Shown: positions 4,646-42,024 of the stretch, one piece after another
Layout: each line of letters opens with the position of its first letter
Position numbering within the stretch: position 1 is the stretch's first letter
DNA from: an uncultured Chloroflexia bacterium
GTDB taxonomy: Bacteria; Chloroflexota; Limnocylindria; Limnocylindrales; CSP1-4
Length of the DNA stretch: 64,000 nucleotides
Direction: 5' to 3'
Assembly: GCA_963739365.1 (NCBI GenBank)
Contig: CAVUAG010000006.1
Location: 55,991 to 119,990 of the forward strand
The notes under the pieces: model-generated
Database searches by the model: none
Told to the model about the DNA's origin: nothing
Seen by the model: the letters and a program-made list of their open reading frames with translations, nothing else
Program-made: the position numbers and the translations under genes

Positions 4646-5914
4646 CTACCGAAGCGCGGCGGTTCGCGCCGTCGGGCGTGTCGCTTCCGGGCCGGTCGCC
4701 TCCGGCCGTCCCCCGGAGCGGATCCCGCGAACGAAGACGATGGCCACCAGGTAGCTCGCCGCCATCAGCAGGAAGACAGCCGTGAAGCCGGTCTCGTCAC
4801 CGAGCACGCCGACGAGCACGCCGAGCAGCGCCGCCCAGGCCGCGCCGACCAGGAACATCAGCGTGAAGTAGGTCGAGTTGGCCGCGTCGCGGATGGCGGC
4901 CGGGGCTGCCTCCACCAGCAGCCCCTGGAGCAGGCTCGCCTCCTCGAAGACGAAGGCCCCCACGAAACCGATCGCGAGCCAGACCAGCGGGATCGAGCCG
5001 CCGGCCACCACGAGCAGGACGAGAGCCGCCGAGCCTGCCACGTACGAGCCGATGAGCACCGGACGATGCCCGTAGCGACCCGCCAGCCGACCCGCGATCA
5101 GCGGCCCGGGAACGCTGCCGGCGAGCAGGAGCGTGTACATGAGGGCGATCGTCCCGGCGTCGAGGTCGAGCGAGCGGGCGAGGTAGAGCGGGACGAAGGT
5201 GGAGACGACGCCGATGCCGCGCCCGGCCGCGGCGATCGACGACGCGGCGAAGAGGCGCCGCAGGTCCGGCTCGCGCAGGACCGCGGCGAAGCCCGCGCGG
5301 ACGCTGCCATGGGCCACGGCGGCCGCCCGATCGGTGCCCGTCTCCCGCACGGCGACAAGGATCAGGGCGCCCACGACGACCGCCGGGATCCCGACGGCGG
5401 CCATCGCGACCGGCCAGCCGAACGAGACGATGAGCCAGGCGCCGACGAGGGGCACCGCCACGGTCCCCAGGTTCCCGCCCGCGATGTGGACGGCGATCGC
5501 GGCGGCCCGGGCGCGCGCGGGGCGCTGCTCGGCGATGAGCGCGTTGCCCACCGGGTGCTGGGGCGACCCGGCGACGCGGGCGACGATCGTGCCGAGCGAG
5601 AAGGCGCCCCACGACACGGCGAGGCCGGTCGCGGTCATGGCGGCGCCGAAGACGAGGCCACCGATGCCGAGGAGCGAGCGCCTGCTCATGACGCGCTGGA
5701 GCGGCGCATAGGCGACCTGGACGAGGCCGGTCAGGACGTTGCCGACGGCAAGAAGGAGGCCCATCTCGCCAACCCCGATCCCGAAGACCGGCGTCACAGC
5801 GATGAAGACAAGGGGCAGCAGAGCGGTCTGGGCGTGGATGAAGCCGTGCTGGGCCGAGAGCAGGCCCAGGGTGAGGCCGGGGCGAAGGTCGCCGGGCGGG
5901 GCCTGGTCATCCAC
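4646..5914 (-). CDS. MFS transporter
   Basis: Hydrophobic multi-TM ORF (track 4646..6016) with the MFS loop motif GRLAGRYGHRP. I place the start at GTG 5914 (VDDQAPPG...), overlapping the amrA stop by 8 nt. The upstream part of the ORF is R/S-rich and overlaps amrA. Confidence 0.75.
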   Translation of the reverse strand: MDDQAPPGDLRPGLTLGLLSAQHGFIHAQTALLPLVFIAVTPVFGIGVGEMGLLLAVGNVLTGLVQVAYAPLQRVMSRRSLLGIGGLVFGAAMTATGLAVSWGAFSLGTIVARVAGSPQHPVGNALIAEQRPARARAAAIAVHIAGGNLGTVAVPLVGAWLIVSFGWPVAMAAVGIPAVVVGALILVAVRETGTDRAAAVAHGSVRAGFAAVLREPDLRRLFAASSIAAAGRGIGVVSTFVPLYLARSLDLDAGTIALMYTLLLAGSVPGPLIAGRLAGRYGHRPVLIGSYVAGSAALVLLVVAGGSIPLVWLAIGFVGAFVFEEASLLQGLLVEAAPAAIRDAANSTYFTLMFLVGAAWAALLGVLVGVLGDETGFTAVFLLMAASYLVAIVFVRGIRSGGRPEATGPEATRPTARTAALR

Positions 5915-6545
5915 CCCGCGATGATGCGGGTTCGCCGGCCGCGAGGAGCGGCCCTGACGCCCGCTCGACCTCGAAGACCTCGAGCCGCGTCGTGCGCTCG
6001 CGCCAGGCGTCGGCATGAAGGCCGGCCTTCGCGCAGACCGCGTCGAGCATCTCGATCGTGCCCCAGCGCATCTCGGTGGCCACCTGCGGGAGCAGCAGCG
6101 CGCGACGGCCGCGGGCCTCCACGACGATCCCGTCGCGCCCGGGAACGAAGTCCCCCGGGTTGGCGAGCGGGCGCGGGCGGGAGAGCACGCTCACCTCGAT
6201 GCTGATCCCGGGGAGCTCGGGTGCCGCCACCGGCGGGAAGCGCGGGTCGCGCGTCGCCGCCATTCCGGCTGCCCGGACGACCGCCTCGCCAAGCGGCATC
6301 TCCGCGCCGAGGGTCCCCATGCAGCCGCGCAGGTCGTCGTCGACCGTCAGGGTCACGAACGCGTCTGCAGACGCAACGAGGGCCGGCTGGGCGCGGGCAT
6401 CGGGTACGGGTGCGGGCCGGCCCTCGACCGCCGCGATCACCGCGGCACGCGCGAGGTCGAGCAGGTGCTCGTGCGGGTGCGGCCCGGCGCTCGCGGCCTG
6501 CCCGGCGCTCGTGGCCTGCCCGGCGTTCGGGTCGGGATCGTGCAT
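5907..6545 (-). CDS. amrA: AmmeMemoRadiSam system protein A (AMMECR1 domain)
   Basis: Track ORF 5907..6881, with the start placed at ATG 6545 (MHDPDPN...). AMMECR1 core: AFVTLTVDDDLRGCMGTL, ATRDPRFPPV, IEVSVLS, GRRALLLPQV. Divergent from amrS across a 136-nt spacer. Confidence 0.8.
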   Translation of the reverse strand: MHDPDPNAGQATSAGQAASAGPHPHEHLLDLARAAVIAAVEGRPAPVPDARAQPALVASADAFVTLTVDDDLRGCMGTLGAEMPLGEAVVRAAGMAATRDPRFPPVAAPELPGISIEVSVLSRPRPLANPGDFVPGRDGIVVEARGRRALLLPQVATEMRWGTIEMLDAVCAKAGLHADAWRERTTRLEVFEVERASGPLLAAGEPASSRGG

Positions 6546-6681
6546 CGCGGCCTCCCAGGCCGGCATCCTGCGCGCGCCCGGCATCGTCGGCCAGTTCCGA
6601 ACGGCGCCGCCAACACGGGCCGGAGGGCACTGGCCGGGGCACGTCCGGCGGACGGAGACTCGACCTGAGGCCATCCGTCGC

Positions 6682-7784
6682 ATGTCCACCCTGCCCGTTG
6701 CCGGCCGCCGCAGCGCCGCCCCGTCCCCACGGGCCGTCGGCGTGGTTCCCGCGCTCCTCGCCGAGCCCCAGGAGGACGGCAGCGTCCTCTGCAACGCGTG
6801 CGCCATGCGCTGCCTCGTCCGGCCCGGCCGAATCGGCATCTGCGGCGTCCGGGAGAACCGCGACGGGGTCCTCCACTCCACCGTGTACGGTCGCGCGGTG
6901 GCCGTCGGGATCGACCCGATCGAGAAGAAGCCGCTCTTCCACGTCGCCCCCGGGGCCCTCGCCTACTCGATCGCGACGGTCGGCTGCCCGTTCCACTGCT
7001 CGTTCTGCCAGAACTGGGAGATCGCCCAGGCGCCGCGCCTGGGGCTCGACCTGCCGACGCGCAGCCTTCCCCCGTCGAAGGTGGTGGACGAGGCCCTGAA
7101 CGCCCGGGCGCGCGCGATCGCCTACACCTACGTCGAGCCGACCGTCTTCCTCGAGTACGCCCTCGACACGGCCGCGCGAGGCTCACGCCGCCGGCCTCCT
7201 CAACGTCTTCGTCACCGACGGCTACGCCACGCCCGAGGCGATCGATCTCCTGCGGCCCGTACCTCGACGCCGCCAACGTCGACCTCAAGTCGTTCGACGA
7301 CGCCTTCTACCGGAAGCTGTGCGGCGCGCGCCTGGCGCCGGTGCTCGACGCGCTGCGTGCCTACCGGGCCGCGGGCGTCTGGGTCGAGGTCACGACGCTC
7401 GTGATCCCCGGCCACAACGACGACTCCGGCGAGCTCCGCGCGCTGGCCGGCTGGGTCGCGACCGAGCTGGGCCCCGAGACGCCGTGGCACGTCAGCCGCT
7501 TCTTCCCGGCCCACAAGATGACGGACGTGCCGCCGACGCCCCTCGAGACCCTCCGCCGGGCCGCCGACATCGGGCGCGAGGCCGGGCTCGCCCACGTCTA
7601 CGTCGGCAACGCGCCGCAGCTCGAGATGGAGGACACCGCCTGCGCCGGGTGCGGGCGCGTGCTCCTCGAGCGCCGCGGGTACCGGGTCTTCGACCGCCTG
7701 GGCCCGGACGGGTCGTGCCCCTCCTGCGGGCGTGCGCTCGCGGGCCGAGCGCTCGACCACGACGGGCGCCAGCCCTGCGGATGA
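6682..7784 (+). CDS. amrS: AmmeMemoRadiSam system radical SAM enzyme, two apparent 1-nt insertions
   Basis: ATG 6682. Radical-SAM CPFHCSFCQNWE (CxxxCxxC). Upstream Cys cluster CNACAMRC...ICGVR. C-terminal blocks YLDAANVDLKSF, VTTLVIPGHND, PWHVSRFFPAHKM, CAGCG...CPSCG. The conserved text runs through three frames: ...EYALDTAA (to ~7172), then REAHAAGLLNVFVTDGYATPEAIDLLRP (~7172-7258), then YLDAANVDLK... Confidence 0.85.
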
Positions 7785-33241: not shown

Positions 33242-33316
33242 TGGTCGGGGTGGTGGGATTCGAACCCACGACCTCGTGCTCCCAAAGCACGTGCGCTACC
33301 ACTGCGCTACACCCCG
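33242..33316 (-). tRNA. tRNA-Pro (anticodon UGG), CCA encoded
   Basis: Reverse complement folds by hand into a cloverleaf: CGGGGTG TA GCGC AGTGGTA GCGC A CGTGC TTTGGGA GCACG AGGTC GTGGG TTCGAAT CCCAC CACCCCG A CCA. It has a 7-bp acceptor stem, a 5-bp anticodon stem with TGG at positions 34-36, and a GTTCGAATC T-loop. Confidence 0.9.
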
Positions 33317-33353
33317 GCCGATTTCGTGCTCACGAAACGCATGTGCTTCGCGA
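33278..33353. repeat. Direct repeat copy 1 (5' half of tRNA-Pro plus ~37 nt of upstream leader)
   Basis: gctcccaaagcacgtgcgctaccactgcgctacaccccggccgatttcgtgctcacgaaacgcatgtgcttcgcga. It matches 39319-39394 at 74 of 76 positions. Weaker similarity continues about 30 nt further (tctagcgtatac versus actagcctatag). Confidence 0.9.
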
Positions 33354-33561
33354 TCGAGCCGCTCAGGTCTAGCGTATACCGCCGAGAGTCGGGTCCTGCC
33401 GCCGGTTCGCGGCGAGGGTCATGAGTGCGGCGGCAATCGCTAGCACGTGTTCGAGGGCCTCGTCGACCACCCTAGGGCCGGGCGCGCGGTCCTGACTGCC
33501 ACAGTGAGGCGGCCGGGGCACTTCACGATCGGCGCCTCATGACATCGATGGCAGCGGGGCA

Positions 33562-34563
33562 TCACCGCTGTCCGCTCCGCGCCCGCGAAGGTGCAGCAAC
33601 CTCGCCGTGTGGCACGATGCGAACGGTGTTCTTCAATTGGCCGATGCCCGCGACGGAAATCCTTATCACATCATCTGGCCTGGCGGTGTATTCGGAAGGT
33701 GGCACGATGGACGTGCCAGTCAGAAGCCAGGCTCCGGCAGGGAGACTGTAGACCGCACCAAGAACCCGGATGAGGTCGGCCGGGTCTCGGACCATGTCGT
33801 CGAGGCTTGAACGGCCAGCGAACACTTGCGTCCCGCCGCGCTCAATGCCGAGGTGAACCGTGCGGCCAGTCAGTGCAACGTTCCAGGCAAGGACTGCGGC
33901 CGGACCGATCGAGCAAGAGGCGTCATAGACCTTGGCCTGAGGAAGGTAGAGTGGGTTCTCCCCTTCTATGCTGCGGGAACTCATGTCGTTGCCAGGGGCA
34001 TAGGCGACCACCTCGCAACGCGAGTTCGCCAGCACCGATAGTTCCGGCTCTGGGACGTCCCATGTCGAGTCCGACCTCACGCCGATCAGGCCATCAGCCG
34101 GAACCAGCCGCCAACCTGCGGCCTTGAAGAAGAGCTCCGGTCGGTCGGCCTCGTAGACGCGTTCATAGATGTCGGGGTTGACAGCCTCGTCGGCGCGAGC
34201 GTCGCGGCTTCTGAGGTAGGTGACCCCTGCTCCCCACACCTCCTGCGATTCCGCGAGACCCGCCCAGGCCAGCTGATGAGGATCCAGCGCGGGCAGGGCG
34301 AGGAGGGCATCGTCGTCAAGGAGGCTCCTGATCGTGGCCAGCGGCTCACTCAGCAGCCGATCGAGCGACGAGACTCGCGGATCACTCGCGGAGTTCAGGT
34401 CGAGAAGGCAACCAGACCGCCAAAGGGCCAGGCCGATCGCCCCGTCAGGATGGCGGACACGGGCAACCGCGGGAGACTCGGGCAACATGCGCAGATCAAT
34501 CCCGGCCATGCCGTTGGCACCCCTCGTCCCGCTCACAGGGGCCACACGCCCCGAATAGGCCAC
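33562..34563 (-). CDS. Fumarylacetoacetate hydrolase (FAH) family protein
   Basis: Intact 333-aa ORF. FAH-fold text PELFFKA, WDVPEPELSVL, GNDMSSRSIEG, LLTGTSIVPP, GIGQLKN. The start may be an internal Met (MAGIDLRML). More A/T-rich than the window average. Confidence 0.7.
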   Translation of the reverse strand: MAYSGRVAPVSGTRGANGMAGIDLRMLPESPAVARVRHPDGAIGLALWRSGCLLDLNSASDPRVSSLDRLLSEPLATIRSLLDDDALLALPALDPHQLAWAGLAESQEVWGAGVTYLRSRDARADEAVNPDIYERVYEADRPELFFKAAGWRLVPADGLIGVRSDSTWDVPEPELSVLANSRCEVVAYAPGNDMSSRSIEGENPLYLPQAKVYDASCSIGPAAVLAWNVALTGRTVHLGIERGGTQVFAGRSSLDDMVRDPADLIRVLGAVYSLPAGAWLLTGTSIVPPSEYTARPDDVIRISVAGIGQLKNTVRIVPHGEVAAPSRARSGQR

Positions 34564-34934
34564 CGGAGTTCCCTCCTTCGGCTCACGCCAGCCTCAGGGG
34601 CAGCCCACGCTCCGCGCCCTCGGCCGCCGGACTCTCTTGAAGCAAGCTCCTGTGCTGAGAGCGTATGTCCAAGACACCAGCACCGCTGGCGCCACGCCCG
34701 CCCTGCCTCGCGAGGGCAGCAGCAACCCGACTAGCGTAGATCAACGGCACCGCGGCGCGCGGGCCACTTCACGACCCACGGCCCTAGCCAAACGACGGGC
34801 GGGTGGCCATCCTGCCGCCAGCGTCAGGAGCAGTAATCGGTGCTCGGCGCAGCGATGCTCATCCAGGTGAGCCAGTCGAGCCGGCTGCCAGGTTCCCGGC
34901 GTGTCCTCTCACAAGGCGGCAAGGAGGCAGTCTC

Positions 34935-36074
34935 ATGAGTGACGTCGGAACCGGCCACACGGTCAACGCGGAGGCGAAGGCAGCGGCGGCGGAGCTCGTC
35001 GGCCAGGCGACGGCCGGGCTCGAAGGCAAGCCGACGCTGGCCATCCTGTTCTCGACGACGCAGTACGACACCGAGGCCCTCGTGTCCGCTGTGTCGGAGC
35101 TGCTGGGCGGAGTGCCCCTCTGGGGCGGCTCATCCTCCACCGGCGTGTTCCAGGATGACAGCTGGGTCACCAGCGACGGCGGTGCCGCCAGCCTGATGCT
35201 GATCGCCGACCGGCCGGCTGGAGTGGGCGTCGCCGCCGTCGGCGAGGGCGGCGGTTTCGCGGCCGGCAAGGAGGCCGCCCGGGCGGCGCTCGAGCAGCTT
35301 GGCGGGGAGGCCGGCGCCCTGCTGACCATCGCCTTCATGGGGCCCGAAGAGGAGATCCTGCGAGGGATCGCCGAGGTTGCCCCGGGCGTGCCGGTGGTCG
35401 GCGGGACGTCGTCGGACCACTCTCCCGACGGCAAGTTCCAGCAGTTCGCGAACGGCCACGCCTACAAGAACCACTTCGCCATCGCGGCCCTCGGGGGGCC
35501 GATCGGCTACGCGTTCACCAATGGCTACCGACCGACGGGCAAGAAGGCAACCGTCACCTCGGCATCGGGGCGCACGGCGTTCGAGCTCGGCGGCCGCCGG
35601 GCGATGGATGTCTACTCGGAGTGGGTCGCTCGACCCGAATCCGAGATCGGCGGTGGCGCGCTCGTGGCGTTCAGCGTCCAGTACCCGCTGCTCTTCCACA
35701 AGGACGGGATCACGTATTCCGCCCACCCGGTCAACAGCAACGCGGACGGCTCGATGGACTTCGGGGCGGCGATGAACCCCGGCATGGAGCTGGAGCTTGG
35801 CGAAGCCTCGGTGAACGGGCTGATCGCCGAGGCAGGCAACGCCGTCTACAAGGCGGTCCAGGGCGTGGGCCACCCCAAGGCCATCGTGCTTGCCCATTGC
35901 GGCGGGCGCGCCATCGCTCTCGGCGACCGGATCAGGGAGATCCCCGCCGAGGTCGAGCACGCCGTCGGCCACATGCCCCTGATCGGCTACCTGGCGTTCG
36001 GGGAGCAGGGCGTTTCGGTGCCAGGCATTCCCACCCATGCCGACCTGAGCCTGTCCGCGCTCGTTCTCGGCTAG
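34935..36074 (+). CDS. FIST-domain (FIST_N + FIST_C) putative sensory protein
   Basis: ATG 34935 preceded by AAGGAGG. Text: PTLAILFSTTQYD, VPLWGGSSSTGVF, VPVVGGTSSD, then the C-terminal half AIVLAHCGGRAIALG, IGYLAFGEQG. Intact, 379 aa. No attached output domain. Confidence 0.7.
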   Translation: MSDVGTGHTVNAEAKAAAAELVGQATAGLEGKPTLAILFSTTQYDTEALVSAVSELLGGVPLWGGSSSTGVFQDDSWVTSDGGAASLMLIADRPAGVGVAAVGEGGGFAAGKEAARAALEQLGGEAGALLTIAFMGPEEEILRGIAEVAPGVPVVGGTSSDHSPDGKFQQFANGHAYKNHFAIAALGGPIGYAFTNGYRPTGKKATVTSASGRTAFELGGRRAMDVYSEWVARPESEIGGGALVAFSVQYPLLFHKDGITYSAHPVNSNADGSMDFGAAMNPGMELELGEASVNGLIAEAGNAVYKAVQGVGHPKAIVLAHCGGRAIALGDRIREIPAEVEHAVGHMPLIGYLAFGEQGVSVPGIPTHADLSLSALVLG

Positions 36075-36197
36075 GTGCCAGTGCCGGTGGTGTCAGTGGC
36101 GGGTGCGGAGCCGGTCGGCGGCTGATCGGCGGCTCCGCGCTCGGCCCCAAGGTCAACGCCGCATCCCGGATGCGGCCGGTCGACTCGGAGGATCACG

Positions 36198-37670
36198 ATG
36201 GCTGTCGCAACACGGCTCTATCAGAACTACGTGAACGGTCGGTTCGTCAGCGCGCAGGGCGACAAGACGCTGCCGGTCGAGAATCCGGCCACCGGTGCTA
36301 CCGTCGCCAACGTGCCCGACTCGTCCGTCGAGGATGCGCGGGAAGCGATCGAGTGCGCAGACAAGGCACAGCGCGCGTGGGAGAAGCTGGCTCCGATCGA
36401 ACGCGCGGACTACCTGCACAAGATCGCTGCCGGAATCCGGAAGGATTCCGAGCACCTCGCCCGGGTCCTATCGGAGGAGCAGGGCAAGCCCCTCGACCAG
36501 GCCCGGGGGGAGGCGAAAGGCACGGCGAACTACTTCGATTACACGGCAGAGTGGGCGCGCCGCATCGAGGGCGACGTCATTGCCAGCGACGAGCCCAACG
36601 ACATGCAGCTGCTGCTGCGACAGCCCATCGGCGTCATCGGGGGCATCGTGCCCTGGAACTTCCCGCTCTACGTGCTCGCGCGGAAGGTGGCGCCGGCCCT
36701 TCTCACGGGCAACTCCATCGTGGTGAAGCCGAGCGAGATCACACCGAACAGCACGCTCGAGCTCGGCCGCATCTTCGACGACGCGGGCGTTCCCGCCGGA
36801 GTCGTCAATATCGTGTGCGGCTACGGCCCGATCGTCGGCGAGGAGCTGGCCTCGAACCCGCTCATCGGCATGGTGACCGTCACGGGCAGCATCAGGACGG
36901 GCTCCCGGGTCATGGAGCTCGCCGCGAAGAACATCACGAAGGTGAGCCTGGAGCTCGGCGGCAGCCATCCGGTCATCGTGATGCCGGACGCCGACCTGGA
37001 CCTGGCGGTCAGGTCCATCAAGGCAGGTCGCCTCCTCAACACCGGCCAGGTGTGCGGCGCACCCGACCGGACCTACGTACACGAGAGCGTCGCCGCCGAG
37101 TTCACCGACCGGCTGGCCACGGCCATGGGCCAGGCGACCTATGGGAACGCGCTCGTCGACGAGGGCCGAGACCTGGGTCCGATGGTGAGCGCACGGCAGC
37201 TCGAGGCGGTCAGCGGACGCGTCGAGCGTGCCGTCGCCGACGGCGGCCAGGTCGTGACCGGCGGCAAGCGCGCCGAGGACAAGCCGGAGGGCCACTACTA
37301 CCCAGCGACCGTCATCGCCAACTGCCGTCAGGACATGGCAATCGTCCGGGAAGAGATCTTTGGGCCGGTGATGCCGATCGTCACGTTCAACGACCTCGAC
37401 GAAGCGATCGCCTGGGCGAACGACTCGATCTACGGGCTCGCCTCGTCGATCTTCACCAAGAACGTCGACGTGATCATGCGAGCGTGCAACGAACTCCGAT
37501 TCGGGGAGACGTACGTCAATCGCGAGAACATGATGGAGAACATGCAGGGGTTCCACGCCGGCTGGCGCAAGTCAGGGATCGGGGGCGCGGACGGCAAGTA
37601 CGGCGTGCTCGAGTACACGCGAACCCACGTCGTCTATCTGCAATACGACATGGCGGCCGGCCGGCCGTAG
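36198..37670 (+). CDS. NAD(P)-dependent aldehyde dehydrogenase
   Basis: Intact, 490 aa. ATG preceded by GGAGGA. Text: VPWNFP, VVKPSEITP, SLELGGSHP, catalytic Cys in NTGQVCGAPDR, EEIFGPV. Confidence 0.9.
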   Translation: MAVATRLYQNYVNGRFVSAQGDKTLPVENPATGATVANVPDSSVEDAREAIECADKAQRAWEKLAPIERADYLHKIAAGIRKDSEHLARVLSEEQGKPLDQARGEAKGTANYFDYTAEWARRIEGDVIASDEPNDMQLLLRQPIGVIGGIVPWNFPLYVLARKVAPALLTGNSIVVKPSEITPNSTLELGRIFDDAGVPAGVVNIVCGYGPIVGEELASNPLIGMVTVTGSIRTGSRVMELAAKNITKVSLELGGSHPVIVMPDADLDLAVRSIKAGRLLNTGQVCGAPDRTYVHESVAAEFTDRLATAMGQATYGNALVDEGRDLGPMVSARQLEAVSGRVERAVADGGQVVTGGKRAEDKPEGHYYPATVIANCRQDMAIVREEIFGPVMPIVTFNDLDEAIAWANDSIYGLASSIFTKNVDVIMRACNELRFGETYVNRENMMENMQGFHAGWRKSGIGGADGKYGVLEYTRTHVVYLQYDMAAGRP

Positions 37671-37754
37671 CCTCCCTGGAACCCGGCGGCCGAGACTGCC
37701 GGGAGCCACCGTCCGCGACGGCGGACCAAGCTGCGGTCGCCGGTCGACACCGGC

Positions 37755-37783
37755 GGGCGCCCCGAGTCAGGCTCGGGGCGCCC
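37755..37783 (+). terminator. GC-rich hairpin downstream of the aldehyde dehydrogenase
   Basis: gggcgccccgag-tcagg-ctcggggcgccc, a 12-bp perfect stem 85 nt after the stop. There is no U-tract, so intrinsic-terminator function is uncertain. Confidence 0.4.
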
Positions 37784-38237
37784 ATCGTCATGCCGGCCGG
37801 TGGTCTCCGCGTGGGTTGCGGCGATCGCGGCCCACTGGCGTGTGCGACCCAACCAGACCCGGTCGACGCGACCAGGTCGCCAGCGCCCGCCGCCGTCGTG
37901 ACCTGACACGTCGCCCTCCGAGCAGGTTCGAGGAGGAGAAGGCGGAGCCGCCGGTCCCCGGCGCCTTCCACAACCCAAATCCAACCAGCCAGCCGTGCCC
38001 CGGCCGCACAGCTGACGGCGGGTCGGAGGACGGCTCGGCCGGCGCGGGTCGCTGGGAGAACCGCCGTGCCCTTCGGCTCTCGCCAGGCCCGCGACCAGCG
38101 CCTACCGTGACCGCTGACGGGAGGCTCGACACGCGGTCCAAACCCCGGCCGCCGGGACCGCGCCGAGCCACTGGCGAGACCGACCCGCATGCCCGAGTGC
38201 AGACACGACAGCGGGACCGGTTCGGAGGGGTCCTTCC

Positions 38238-38700
38238 ATGTCGCTCATCCAGCTTCGCGACCTCCAGAAGACGTACCGGATGGGCAAGCTCGAGTTCGAG
38301 GCACTCAAGGGCGTCGATCTCGACGTCGAGGAGGGTCAACTCGTGGCCATCGTGGGACCATCGGGTTCGGGCAAGTCGACGCTGCTCAACATGATCACGG
38401 GCATCGACAGGCCCACAGGCGGCAGCGTCACGATCGCGGAGACCGGATCGACCAGATGAAGGAAGACAGGCTCGCCGCCTGGCGGGGCGCCAACGTCGGC
38501 ATCGTCTGAGAATCGAGCCCTTTGCCCCTGGCGGCGTGCAGCCGGGCCGGGAAACACTTCCGACCACTGATGTGGCTGCCATGAGGCTGCTCGGCCGGCT
38601 CTCCTGGATCTCGCTCGCTGTGCCGCGCCCTGGCTGGTGCGGTTCGCGGCCAAGCAAGGGATCGGGGCCCCCTACATTCCTGGCGGCGCGCGCGGTCGAA
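38238..38700 (+). pseudogene. Decayed MacB/LolD-type ABC ATPase remnant
   Basis: ATG 38238 after GGAGGGG. MSLIQLRDLQKTYRMGKLEFEALKGVDLDVEEGQLVAIVGPSGSGKSTLLNMITGIDRPTGGSVTI, then stop. The next frame gives DQMKEDRLAAWRGANVGIV, then stop. Only a faint signature-like trace follows (SRSLCRALAG). Q-loop, Walker B and H-loop are missing. Confidence 0.7.
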
Positions 38701-38725
38701 GCCCTTTTGGCCTGAGGAGGCTCAC

Positions 38726-38989
38726 ATGAAGAAGGCGTGGGTCATCGCTGCCATAGTCGCCGGTGAGGCGCTCCTCGTGAGAGCGCTTGGGTCCGGGGTC
38801 GGCAAGACGGACATCGGAGAGCGGATCGCCGCGATGCCTGACACTTCACCGCCGAAGTGGATCTACACGAACGTCACTGCGATCCGAGCGAACACCGAAC
38901 GCATCCTCGCCCTCCTGGAGGAGCAGAGGCTCACCTCTCCGGGGGATCCGCAATCGCCTCCGGGGCCGGAGGTCGCGCGCGAAGCATGA
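38726..38989 (+). CDS. Hypothetical 87-aa protein with N-terminal hydrophobic segment
   Basis: ATG preceded by GAGGAGG. MKKAWVIAAIVAGEALLVRALG... No family recognised. The stop overlaps the ATG of a 23-codon micro-ORF (ATGA at 38986-38989). Confidence 0.4.
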   Translation: MKKAWVIAAIVAGEALLVRALGSGVGKTDIGERIAAMPDTSPPKWIYTNVTAIRANTERILALLEEQRLTSPGDPQSPPGPEVAREA

Positions 38990-39318
38990 CTCGAACCCGC
39001 TTCAAGCTCCCCGCTGGACTCGAGGACACCGTCGCGAGTTCGTTCCAGTTCAACTAGTGCGCGGGCCCGTCAAACCCCTTGCGGCCAGGCTGGCCCGCCT
39101 GTCCTGGAGTGAGCTCGGCGAGCTCCGGGGGCTCGGCGAGCCGCATGGTGGACGTAACGTCGCTGGTCGCAGGGCTACCCCCTGAGGCCCGACCACCGCC
39201 GCCAAGCTGGTACCCGGTCCGGCAGCTTCGTGCTCGCGAACCGCACAATAATCGGTGCCTTCACCGCTCGGCCGGTCGCGCTCAGAACCCCCGACCCTAC
39301 CCCGCACAGGCCCTTGGG

Positions 39319-39394
39319 GCTCCCAAAGCACGTGCGCTACCACTGCGCTACACCCCGGCCGGTTTCGTGCTCGCGAAACGCATGTGCTTCGCGA
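39319..39394. repeat. Direct repeat copy 2: truncated tRNA-Pro (positions 1 to ~39 only, 39319-39357) plus leader
   Basis: Identical to the intact tRNA from its 5' end through the anticodon loop to GGGAGC, then diverges (CCCAAGGGCC instead of ACGAGGTCGTGGG). There is no T-arm or acceptor 3' strand. The upstream leader is 35/37 identical to copy 1. Confidence 0.9.
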
Positions 39395-39553
39395 ACGACA
39401 CCCTGAAGACTAGCCTATAGCGCTCACGTGCCTGAACCCACCGTCGCGGGCCCTTCCGCACCGGCTGCGGCATGTCCTGGGTCGGCTTCGGCTACGGCCG
39501 CGATCCCGATCCTGGGGCTCCTGGGCGACGGAGCGTGCGAGGGGTCGCCCAGA

Positions 39554-40941
39554 TCAGGCCACCACCTCCCTGACGAGTCCCTCGAAGGCGTTCACGTAGC
39601 GGTCGATGTCCTCGTCGGTGTGCTGGACGGAGAGGGTCCACTCCTCTTCGCGCCCCGGGGCGATGATCACCCCGCGGTTGATGTTGTACAGCCAGGCGAG
39701 ATAGCAGAGCTCGACGTCCTGGTACTTGATGAACGACTCGTAGTCGGTGATCCGGCCGGTGGCGAAGTTGACGCAGCCCTTCGACGAGATGCCAACCGTG
39801 TAGCCGGGGAAGTCGTACTTGGCGCAGATCGCGTCGCACTCACTGATGAGGCGGTCGTTCAGGTAGTTGAGGTGCGCGTAGGCCGCGGGGGTCATCACCT
39901 CTTCCAGGCTCGCCCGGGCGGCCGCCATCGACAGCGGGTTGCCGTTGTAGGTGCCCACCTGGTAGACCTTGCCGCTCCTCACGACCTCCATGATCTCGTC
40001 GGTTGCCCCGATGGCGCCCGACGGCAGCCCGCCGCCAGGGCCTTGGCCAGGGTGACCATGTCGGGGACCACGCCGAAGCGCTCGACCGCGCCGCCGGCGG
40101 CGGTGCAGATGCCGGTCTTCACCTCGTCGAAGATGAGGACGATGCCGTGCTTCCTGGTGATCTCGCGCACGGCCTCCAGGTAGCCGGGCTCCGGGAGCAC
40201 CACCCCCAGGTTCATCATGGCCGCTTCCATGATGAGACAGGCGGGCTTGCGCCCTTCCTCGATCAGCCGCTCGATGCGGGCCTCCATCATGGGCGCGTCG
40301 TTGAAAGGCACGGCCGCCGTCATGTCCACGACGGCCTTGGGGATCCCGGCCCCGTAGGAGACCGAGCGGTAGTTGTCGCGCGGCCCGATGTCGCCGAAGT
40401 CGGCCACCCCGAGGCTCACCATCACGTAGTCGTGGTGACCGTGATAGGAGCCGAAGATCTTGAGCACCTGCTCCCGGCCGGTGTAGGCCCGGGCAATGCG
40501 GATCGCGTCCATGGTGGCCTCGGAACCGGAGTTCACGAAGCGCCACTTGGGCAGGCGGAAGCTCCTGGCCAGGTGCTCCGCCACCACGATCGAATCCTCG
40601 GTGGGCAGGGCGAACTGCGTGCCCAGCTCACAGCGCCTCTGGATGGCCGCGACGATGGCCGGGTGGGCGTGGCCCTGGACCATGCAGCCGAAGCCGTTGT
40701 GGAAGTCGCTGATCTCGCGCCCGTCGACCGAGTAGATCTTGGAGCCCTTGCCGTGGGTGAAGTAGATGGGATAGGGGTCGCGCATCTGGTAGCTGGACGA
40801 CACGCCCGCGACAAGGCTCCTGGCCGCCCGCTTGAACAGCTCGAAGGACCTGGGAGTCTCGTTCTCCAGGCGCGTCTCCTCCCGCTTTGCCAATTCGGCG
40901 ATCCGCTTGCGGTCGATCGTCCTGACGGGTGTCGAAGCCAT
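39554..40941 (-). CDS. Class-III (GSA-aminomutase-like) PLP aminotransferase, apparent 1-nt deletion near 40030
   Basis: N-terminal 300 aa in track ORF 39979..40941: FHNGFGCMVQGHAHP, FVNSGSEATMDAIRIAR, IFDEVKTG (PLP Lys), TLAKALA. It continues as GGLPSGAIGATDEIMEVV...GTYNGNPLSMAAA... in track ORF 39554..40546. Confidence 0.85.
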
Positions 40942-41113
40942 TCCCAGCCACCTCTTCCCGTTCCATATCCTTGGCCGCCTCGGCGACAGGGTTGATCCTA
41001 GCGGAGCCGGCGGTCCACCCTGGCCGAGTCGTCATCAGGCGGGACAGCAGGCGAGCCGGACGACGCTCGCCCGGGGCAGCGCGCACCGCGTTCGAACCCG
41101 TACGCTTCCCGTC

Positions 41114-42024
41114 GTGAGCGCCAACGCCTCGGCGACCGTCCTGTCGGTCCTCGGCCTGCGCAAGACCTACGGGTCGCTCGCGGCGGTGGACGGCGTGAGC
41201 CTCGCCGTGGCGGCCGGCGAGGTCGTCGGGCTGCTGGGACCGAACGGCGCGGGCAAGACCACGACGCTCGAGTGCATCGAGGGCCTGCGGCGCCCCGACG
41301 AGGGCGAGGTCCAGATCCTCGGCGACGGCGCCCGACGCGCGGATGCCATGGGCGTGCAGCTGCAGACCGGGGCCCTGCCCGCCGACATGACGGTGGGCGA
41401 GGCGATGCGGTTCTTCTGCGCCTACCACCGCGTCGCACCGCGCGACGATCTCCTCGAGCGCTTCGGGCTCGCCGAAGCGGGCCGCCGGCGCTACGGGGAC
41501 CTGTCGGTCGGGAACCAGCGGCGGCTGGCGCTCGCCCTCGCCATCGCCCACCGGCCGGCCCTGGTCCTGCTCGATGAGCCGACGGCCGGCCTCGACGTCG
41601 CCTCTCGGACCGAGCTGCACGCCATCGTGCGCGAGCTCGCTGCCAGGGGACGGCCGTGCTGCTGGCAACGCACGACATGGCGGAGGCGGAGAAGATCGCC
41701 GACCGCGTCTCCATCCTCCTCCGGGGCCGGGTCGTCGCGGAGGGAACCCCGCGAGAGATCACGGCGACCGGCGCGGCGATGACGAAGGTGTCGGTGGCGA
41801 CCGAGGACGGCGTCTTCGCGACCGGTGCCGTGTCGCTCGCCGCGGCCGCGCTGCGTGACGCCACGGGGGGCTACGCGGTCTACTACAGCAGCGACCCTGC
41901 CGCGACCGTCGCTGCCCTTCTCGCGGAGCTGGAGAGTCGCGGGGACCGGCTGGTGGATCTTCGCGTCGAGCGGCCCAGCCTGGAGGAACGCTTCCTCGAG
42001 ATCACGGGCGGGGGGCCGTCGTGA
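41114..42024 (+). CDS. ABC transporter ATP-binding protein (ABC-2 type), frame break near 41650
   Basis: GTG 41114. GPNGAGKTT, LSVGNQRRLALA, LVLLDEPTAGLD in track ORF 40832..41782. It continues AVLLATHDMAEAEKIADRVSILLRGRVVAEGTP... in track ORF 41656..42024. The stop overlaps the next start. Confidence 0.8.

Follow-up and report, generated by a model that had tools for sequence, protein, structure and literature searches.

A displaced tRNA-Pro 5' half and a probable array of decayed, integrase-less islands in an uncultured Limnocylindrales bacterium

The 64,000-nt stretch of DNA analyzed here, referred to as the window, is part of contig CAVUAG010000006.1 (assembly GCA_963739365.1) from an uncultured bacterium of the Limnocylindrales, phylum Chloroflexota. 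Its tRNA-Pro(UGG) gene is accompanied, about 6 kb away, by a second copy of the 5' half of the gene and of the leader that precedes it. This direct repeat is probably the scar of integrase-moved islands that entered tRNA-Pro via its 5' half, and the window would contain a decayed array of such islands without an integrase. The locus represents an array that is old, decayed and devoid of an integrase, and not a 6-kb cassette of recent acquisition.

The source is a metagenome-assembled genome (MAG) of 2.3 Mb that is 69% complete. A first search compared 12 kb of the locus with 30 relatives, the whole-genus comparison comprised 42 genomes including that of the window, and the scan for the integrase clade described below covered 185,579 species genomes. 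The related loci belong mostly to soil MAGs identified in their record titles as Chloroflexota, Candidatus Limnocylindrales. Relatives are designated by codes of the type G001; G050 is the nearest at the tRNA-Pro locus, with about 91% identity, and the core DNA flanking the locus in the relatives is approximately 78-86% identical to that of the window.

The tRNA-Pro gene, its displaced 5' half and the att-like unit

The only tRNA gene of the window, tRNA-Pro(tgg), encompasses nucleotides 33242 to 33316 of the minus strand, where a first-pass annotation had placed it and where ARAGORN and Rfam (75.7 bits) agree. It is intact and includes an encoded CCA. The assembly has no other UGG isoacceptor, and the gene serves as the attachment site. 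A repeat search defined a direct repeat of 105 nt with 90% identity between coordinates 33278-33382 and 39319-39423, consisting of tRNA nucleotides 1 to 39 and 66 nt of upstream leader; no further full copy is present in the 2.3-Mb assembly. Direct reading of both copies reproduced the 74 of 76 identical positions noted in the first pass for 33278-33353, followed by weaker similarity (about 68%) over the next 30 nt or so. The proximal copy (minus strand) is formed by the 5' part of the intact gene (33278-33316) and its leader (33317-33382), which contains GATTTCGTGCTCACG and departs from the canonical leader of the genus beyond position 33353. In the distal copy the displaced tRNA 5' half (39319-39360, minus strand) includes nucleotides 1 to 39 and 3 nt upstream and is identical to the intact copy. 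It comprises the 5' strand of the acceptor stem, the D arm, the 5' strand of the anticodon stem, the loop and the first two bases of the 3' strand. The T arm and the 3' strand of the acceptor stem are missing, so this is indeed a truncated tRNA, with the break 2 nt past the anticodon loop. The canonical leader displaced together with it (39361-39425, minus strand) contains GGTTTCGTGCTCGCG, and its conservation ends sharply at approximately position 39425.

On its other side the displaced 5' half is joined to a segment that we call the island-side arm (39227-39318, minus strand), the sequence of which ends with ..CCCTTGGG at the junction. A 19-nt motif, TTCGTGCTCRCGAAMCGCA, is found in three copies in direct orientation, starting at positions 33323, 39227 and 39364, while 0.02 copies are expected by chance. 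The copy in the arm (39227-39245) is the third occurrence of a leader motif that had already been noticed, the one at 39364-39382 lies in the displaced leader, and the one in the proximal leader (33323-33341) reads TTCGTGCTCACGAAACGCA on the plus strand and includes the 6-bp inverted repeat TTCGTG..CACGAA. This motif is a candidate protein-binding site. The arm also has a small conserved hairpin (39253-39266, minus strand) followed by an A/T-rich stretch, ATTATTGTG, which could serve as a terminator for transcripts from the displaced tRNA promoter or as a bending or binding site. A scan with the sigma-70 consensus detected no promoter in either leader, although such a scan is uninformative for a Chloroflexota genome with 72% G+C.

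The arm, the tRNA 5' half and the leader make up an att-like unit of about 200 nt (39227-39425) that is present in multiple copies in the genus, clustered beside the tRNA-Pro of each genome. Fourteen displaced units from nine genomes, aligned in register, showed sharp edges, with mean pairwise identities of 72% in the arm (about 92 nt), 95% in the tRNA 5' half (42 nt), 78% in the leader (about 65 nt) and 31-44% directly outside the unit. The match to the tRNA ends at one and the same base in all copies, 2 nt beyond the anticodon loop. About 16 of the 42 genomes harbor from one to five displaced units each; the remaining genomes with a match have only the tRNA with the same leader, and four incomplete genomes gave no match. 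Since genomes free of units carry the tRNA with this leader, the canonical leader is the native one. At the loci examined the units are on the strand of the tRNA and within about 80 kb of it, and the cassettes that they delimit range from 1.7 to about 18 kb and include genes on both strands. The smallest (locus L017 of G007, 5210-6962) consists of one beta-lactamase-family (PF00144) gene between the tRNA and an att unit. The window includes a vapBC-like module (50517-51164) whose homolog in G006 (L018, 7731-8407), 79% identical, comes immediately after an att unit, which shows that the arrays carry toxin-antitoxin genes along.

Integrases beside tRNA-Pro in related genomes

In G011 and G004 a whole-genome Pfam scan revealed a tyrosine recombinase gene at most about 500 nt from tRNA-Pro, and inspection of gene maps added G012. 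In the three genomes this gene is on the 5' side of the tRNA, is divergently transcribed and codes for a 327-amino acid protein with SAM-like N domains and a PF00589 match of 95.8 bits, which can be described as Xer-like and scores under the XerC and XerD cut-offs. The intact tRNA of these genomes bears a different, island-type leader linked to the integrase, and the canonical leader and 5' half are found displaced by 14-28 kb and joined to the arm. This displacement of the canonical leader is as expected for an island whose attP includes a leader and a 5' half and recombines at the anticodon loop. Moreover, the unit at 39227-39425 of the window matches the units that bound the integrase-bearing islands in G011, G004 and G012, so that the window has att flanks of the kind used to recognize cis-mobilizable elements (CIMEs). 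With an integrase on the 5' side of the tRNA in relatives and the same unit at the far end of their integrase-bearing islands, the degraded island that entered through the 5' half, one of the options left by the first-pass annotation, is the one that the comparison favors.

The integrase clade was found mainly in Limnocylindrales and other Chloroflexota. At approximately 21 loci where the integrase is at least 51% identical and the flanks are present, tRNA-Pro precedes the integrase start by 90-170 nt and is encoded on the other strand. The protein is 96-98% identical among three species, which, compared with about 78-86% between the flanking core DNA of relatives and that of the window, points to recent horizontal spread. 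Cargo genes of the relatives' islands code for a LAL-type regulator, a CHAD protein, a major facilitator superfamily transporter, two-component systems, a cyclase-STAND protein and a Replic_Relax protein; genes for conjugation or of phage origin were not observed in these islands. A module coding for the CHAD protein, a membrane protein and the LAL regulator is 96.9% identical between G011 (L014, 1511-7002) and G016 (L016, 9506-15001), the core DNA around it being about 80-86% identical in relatives. More distant homologs of the integrase, with about 38-46% identity, were found in Chloroflexota, including Dehalococcoidia, and in Actinomycetota. Five of them (L043, L046, L052, L059 and L081) are divergently oriented on the 5' side of tRNA-Gly, tRNA-Arg or tRNA-Ala genes, and four others (L044, L066, L068 and L076) occupy the classical position downstream of tRNA-Thr, tRNA-Phe or tRNA-Arg. 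Both solutions to the choice of the target half occur within one wider integrase family.

One alternative builds on the tandem duplication already named in the first pass: tRNA-Pro and its promoter would have been duplicated locally, one copy would later have been truncated by a deletion, and unrelated genes would have been inserted, with no participation of an integrase. The lack of an integrase in the window agrees with this possibility, as does the duplication of the leader along with the tRNA half, which resembles a segmental duplication, and so does the age of the 39.3-kb repeat, which must be old because it is shared with G050 at 91% identity. The truncation point, however, is the same in more than 14 copies from nine genomes, and every one of these copies is joined to the same conserved 92-nt arm and not to the tRNA flank. 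The unit also bounds integrase-bearing islands in three relatives, and in many genomes the integrase clade keeps to the 5' side of tRNA-Pro. A tandem duplication is for these reasons very unlikely.

A model for integration via the 5' half can be outlined as follows. tRNA-Pro(UGG) would be the chromosomal target of islands moved by the Xer-like tyrosine integrase, with strand exchange at the anticodon loop. Unlike most islands in tRNA genes (tDNA), the incoming island would bring a tRNA 5' half with its leader and promoter. The working tRNA gene after integration would be a hybrid composed of the promoter and 5' half from the island and the 3' half from the chromosome, and the old promoter and 5' half would end up at the distal edge of the island, next to its arm of about 92 nt. 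Repeated integration followed by deletion of the integrase would give rise to arrays of integrase-less cassettes separated by units consisting of arm, 5' half and leader. In these terms a clade of integrases from uncultured soil Chloroflexota would consistently use a minority solution to tRNA targeting, the replacement of the 5' half, and would therefore have to bring a working promoter for an essential tRNA. The arrays of the genus form a natural gradation between intact islands and remnants without an integrase, from which the att site of a new integrase could be determined experimentally.

Probable decay of the array in the window

The 6 kb bounded by the repeats, regarded in the first pass as one acquired cassette, is made up of two older cassettes that were fused when an intervening att unit was lost, as we infer, by deletion. 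The first includes the genes for an FAH-family hydrolase, a FIST protein and an aldehyde dehydrogenase (ALDH), and the second a riboswitch, a stub of an ABC ATPase gene and an open reading frame of 87 codons, orf87; of these genes only the FAH gene is specific to this genome. The junction is at 37805/37806. Homology to the FIST-ALDH block of the relatives stops at 37805, at the end of the ALDH 3' flank (37755-37805, plus strand), which includes a GC-rich hairpin (37755-37783). In the relatives ALDH is the last gene ahead of an att unit, and the unit that follows the flank begins within 4 nt in G011 and about 100 nt further on in G041, and is a degenerate remnant in G050. The first 95 nt or so from position 37806 correspond to a leader extension that in G050, G016 and G007 is located directly behind the leader, so that 37806-37900 (plus strand) is a relic of the outer leader extension of the lost unit. 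In G050 the tRNA and its leader are directly followed by a homolog of 37806-38507, with the riboswitch and the ABC ATPase, then by about 4.2 kb that are not in the window, then by orf87 and an arm; the 4.2-kb segment presumably represents the remainder of the transporter. The FIST-ALDH block of G050 is about 20 kb away, beside the degenerate unit. None of the genomes of the genus has a span across 37805/37806. An ordinary deletion of about 240 nt, which would have removed the arm, the 5' half and the inner part of the leader, is enough to explain the fusion, and may have taken place between the similar short sequences CCGGTGGTC and GGACTGGAC.

Two other explanations of this junction were considered. 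A base-pair-precise loss of a mobile unit resembling a miniature inverted-repeat transposable element was rejected since none of the genomes has the order ALDH, unit, 37806, all units have one orientation and are clustered by the tRNA, and 37806-37900 is the outer part of the leader extension as found in G050, G016 and G007. The arrangement could also be an artefact of assembly or binning of co-occurring congeners, above all at the ALDH|37806 junction and in the frameshifted genes described below; several MAGs of the group derive from single samples according to their record titles, and two neighboring genes are frameshifted, a frequent defect of long-read assemblies. On the other hand, if contigs had been misjoined at a repeat, a copy of it would have been retained, and the junction has none, and both repeat copies and all the gene blocks are individually corroborated in independent genomes. 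An artefact thus appears very unlikely.

The 39.3-kb repeat had been taken as the boundary of the foreign stretch, which does not hold: the variable region continues beyond it with about 13 kb of non-syntenic accessory genes. A weak relic consisting of an arm only (52553-52621, plus strand; 79.7% identity over 59 nt, nhmmer E = 4e-4) is found just before conserved synteny with the relatives restarts at 52785, and the variable region linked to the tRNA thus reaches about 52.7 kb. In G005 the homologs of 61.6-64 kb are about 0.7 kb from the tRNA leader. The array would then read, from the tRNA, FAH-FIST-ALDH, the site of the lost att unit with its relic at 37806-37900, the riboswitch, ABC stub and orf87, the att unit at 39227-39425, the 13 kb of accessory genes, the arm relic at 52.6 kb and the conserved core. 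In the annotation of this genome the segment from 33.3 to 52.7 kb is best regarded as an island array in decay, with the FAH gene as the only clearly recent acquisition.

Loss of the integrase is seen directly in relatives. An internal unit of G015 has the integrase-type leader but its integrase is gone, and in G050 one arm breaks off after 55 nt and continues into a neighboring island at the point where the integrase would be. None of the internal cassettes of the sampled arrays has an integrase.

Several observations weigh against the interpretation of the window as a decayed array of integrase-moved islands. In the window, in agreement with the first pass, and in the 69%-complete assembly no integrase or excisionase, nor remnants of them, were found: a Pfam scan gave no PF00589 match on the contig of the window, tblastn found no homolog of the relatives' integrase in the assembly, and a clade-specific hidden Markov model detected no remnant in the six frames of 33-53 kb (best E = 0.13). 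Scans of metagenome contigs by exact match, one for the predicted empty site (tRNA 3' half and 5' half followed by the distal leader) and one for the junction of arm and 5' half, returned nothing, and nothing shows that the copy in the window is still mobile. The presumed crossover position is placed solely by the point at which identity ends. In addition, the integrase of the relatives has no recognizable arm-binding N-terminal domain, and for this reason a role of the 19-nt motif as an arm-type site is speculative. The FIST and ALDH genes, most of the cargo, are present genus-wide with 81-91% identity, which is comparable to the core, and look vertically inherited; recent acquisition is for this reason supported for the FAH gene only. 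The integrase for which Islander looks is present in G011, G004 and G012.

A different possibility is that the units, which at internal positions have the complete structure of attP-like sites, are still live, and that one Xer-like integrase beside the tRNA acts in trans to take up, reshuffle and release cassettes that have no integrase of their own and to re-insert them at tRNA-Pro. Soil Limnocylindrales would then anchor at tRNA-Pro an exchange resembling that of integrons or of CIME accretion, in which case the cassette of the window would be dormant and awaiting a helper. Each insertion would then provide an essential tRNA with a new promoter. Such a system would fit the fact that the sampled arrays have at most one integrase, always beside the intact tRNA, and cassettes that go from a single gene (1.7 kb, in G007) to about 18 kb. 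It would also fit the changes in position, with the riboswitch-ABC-orf87 cassette proximal to the tRNA in G050 and internal in G016 and the FIST-ALDH block at varying places, the 95% conservation of the displaced 5' halves, and the vapBC genes within arrays. However, this conservation is expected in any case, because each copy served in a working tRNA until it was displaced, and the rearrangements observed include plain deletions through att units, which denote decay and not site-specific exchange. Genes inside the cassettes are in mixed orientation, the integrase is far under the cut-offs of the integron-integrase models (52.5 bits versus 265 for TIGR02249, and 27.4 versus 435 for NF011946), and the two scans of metagenome contigs did not find a circular or empty junction. 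Live exchange among the units seems to us unlikely, and accumulation of islands followed by decay remains the preferred interpretation.

Known systems, composition and genes of the cassettes

The arrangement is a known one, a tDNA island with a 5' fragment that has decayed in the fashion of CIMEs, of which this locus is a new instance. The first pass considered the duplication of the 5' half unusual; it is uncommon but not new, as 159 of the 3919 islands found by Islander have a 5' tDNA fragment (PMC4383910). As in those islands, an intact tRNA (33242-33316, minus strand) and a cognate end fragment in the same orientation and on one replicon (39319-39360, minus strand) bracket the DNA; the fragment is a 5' end (tRNA nucleotides 1 to 39) located upstream in the orientation of the tRNA, and the length, about 6 kb between the repeats or about 19 kb for the whole variable region, is within the 2-200 kb range of Islander. 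A sublocation centered on the anticodon loop, a tyrosine integrase, here in the relatives, and tandem arrays are further points in common. The duplicated block differs by the addition of a leader of about 65-140 nt with a putative promoter, and the copy in the window, being integrase-less, would fail the integrase filter of Islander.

The CIMEs and the accretion arrays of integrative and conjugative or mobilizable elements, such as ICESt1 and the CIME elements of Streptococcus thermophilus (PMC5704250), also keep att sites after losing integration genes, accrete at the att site of a target gene and form mosaics of decayed elements, and the cassette of the window has likewise neither integration nor transfer genes of its own. 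The S. thermophilus cases differ in that their target gene is entered at its 3' end and that they belong to conjugative systems, whereas no conjugation genes were seen in the relatives studied here, which show only the integrase and the Replic_Relax protein. Within the Chloroflexota, numerous islands of Dehalococcoides are lined up in tandem no more than about 100 kb from a single small-RNA gene, ssrA (PMC3146451). These islands are separated by direct repeats derived from that gene, some lack an integration module, and they include accessory metabolic cargo, all of which is similar to the situation described here. Their recombinase, on the other hand, is a CcrB-like serine enzyme, their target is the 3' end of ssrA (T loop) and their repeat is 20 bp long (PMC3146451), in contrast to the tyrosine recombinase, tRNA-Pro 5' half and unit of about 200 nt of the present arrays. 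Chromosomal integrons share a Xer-related recombinase by the primary site, integrase-less cassettes between repeated sites, and toxin-antitoxin genes, but the integrase of the relatives lacks the IntI signature, the repeats are tRNA-derived direct units and probably not attC hairpins, and the cassettes are multi-gene, of mixed orientation and 1.7-18 kb long, where those of integrons are mostly single, co-oriented and promoterless. An integron was rejected on the score of the integrase and the structure of the cassettes, and there is no IntI in the window.

The 6 kb between the repeats has 68.3% G+C, compared with a mean of 72.5% (standard deviation 1.7) in windows of the same size across the genome; it ranks among the lowest 1.3% of these by G+C content and among the top 1.9% by tetranucleotide distance. 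The lower G+C content reported in the first pass is thus real but modest, the values of 57-60% being overstated, as only single 120-nt stretches of the FAH gene reach 60%. The G+C content at third codon positions is atypical in the FAH gene only (0.72), and is 0.86-0.95 in FIST, ALDH and the neighboring aminotransferase gene, whose lower total G+C stems from codon positions 1 and 2. The low-G+C stretch passes the second repeat and extends up to about 41 kb.

The three long intact genes and the truncated ABC ATPase gene listed in the first pass are present. The FAH-family hydrolase gene (33562-34563, minus strand, 333 amino acids) is found in none of the other 41 genomes of the genus. The nearest relatives of its product, 60-74% identical, are metagenome proteins, some labeled Chloroflexi or Limnocylindria, in addition to one metagenome fragment with about 95% identity; JGI labels relatives as 2-dehydro-3-deoxy-D-arabinonate dehydratase. 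The second gene (34803-36074, plus strand, 423 amino acids), homologous to those of the relatives from 34825, codes for a stand-alone FIST N and C sensor protein, and the third (36198-37670, plus strand, 490 amino acids) for an AldA-type aldehyde dehydrogenase (NF007497, 666 bits, above the cut-off). The KdaD-like FAH-family protein and the ALDH are not claimed to be a Weimberg-type pair, as the latter passes the AldA-type model. In the second former cassette a LolD/MacB-like ABC ATPase stub (38238-38509, plus strand) retains only Walker A, and orf87 (38726-38989, plus strand) codes for 87 amino acids that are 91-92% conserved in the same cassette of G016 and G050.

Beyond the 39.3-kb unit, the first gene of the next variable segment codes for a class-III aminotransferase (39554-40941, minus strand) that is read in two frames owing to a frameshift near 39980-40000. 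An ABC ATPase gene at 40832-42024 is, like it, readable only across two frames, and both could be either pseudogenes or the result of indel errors in a long-read assembly.

The ABC ATPase stub is preceded by a c-di-GMP-II-GAG riboswitch aptamer (38111-38194, plus strand; RF03169, 63.5 bits, gathering score 40). A stretch of about 120 nt around it (38068-38194) recurs many times in each of the genus genomes, at dispersed places and often in clusters, which points to a large riboswitch-controlled regulon.

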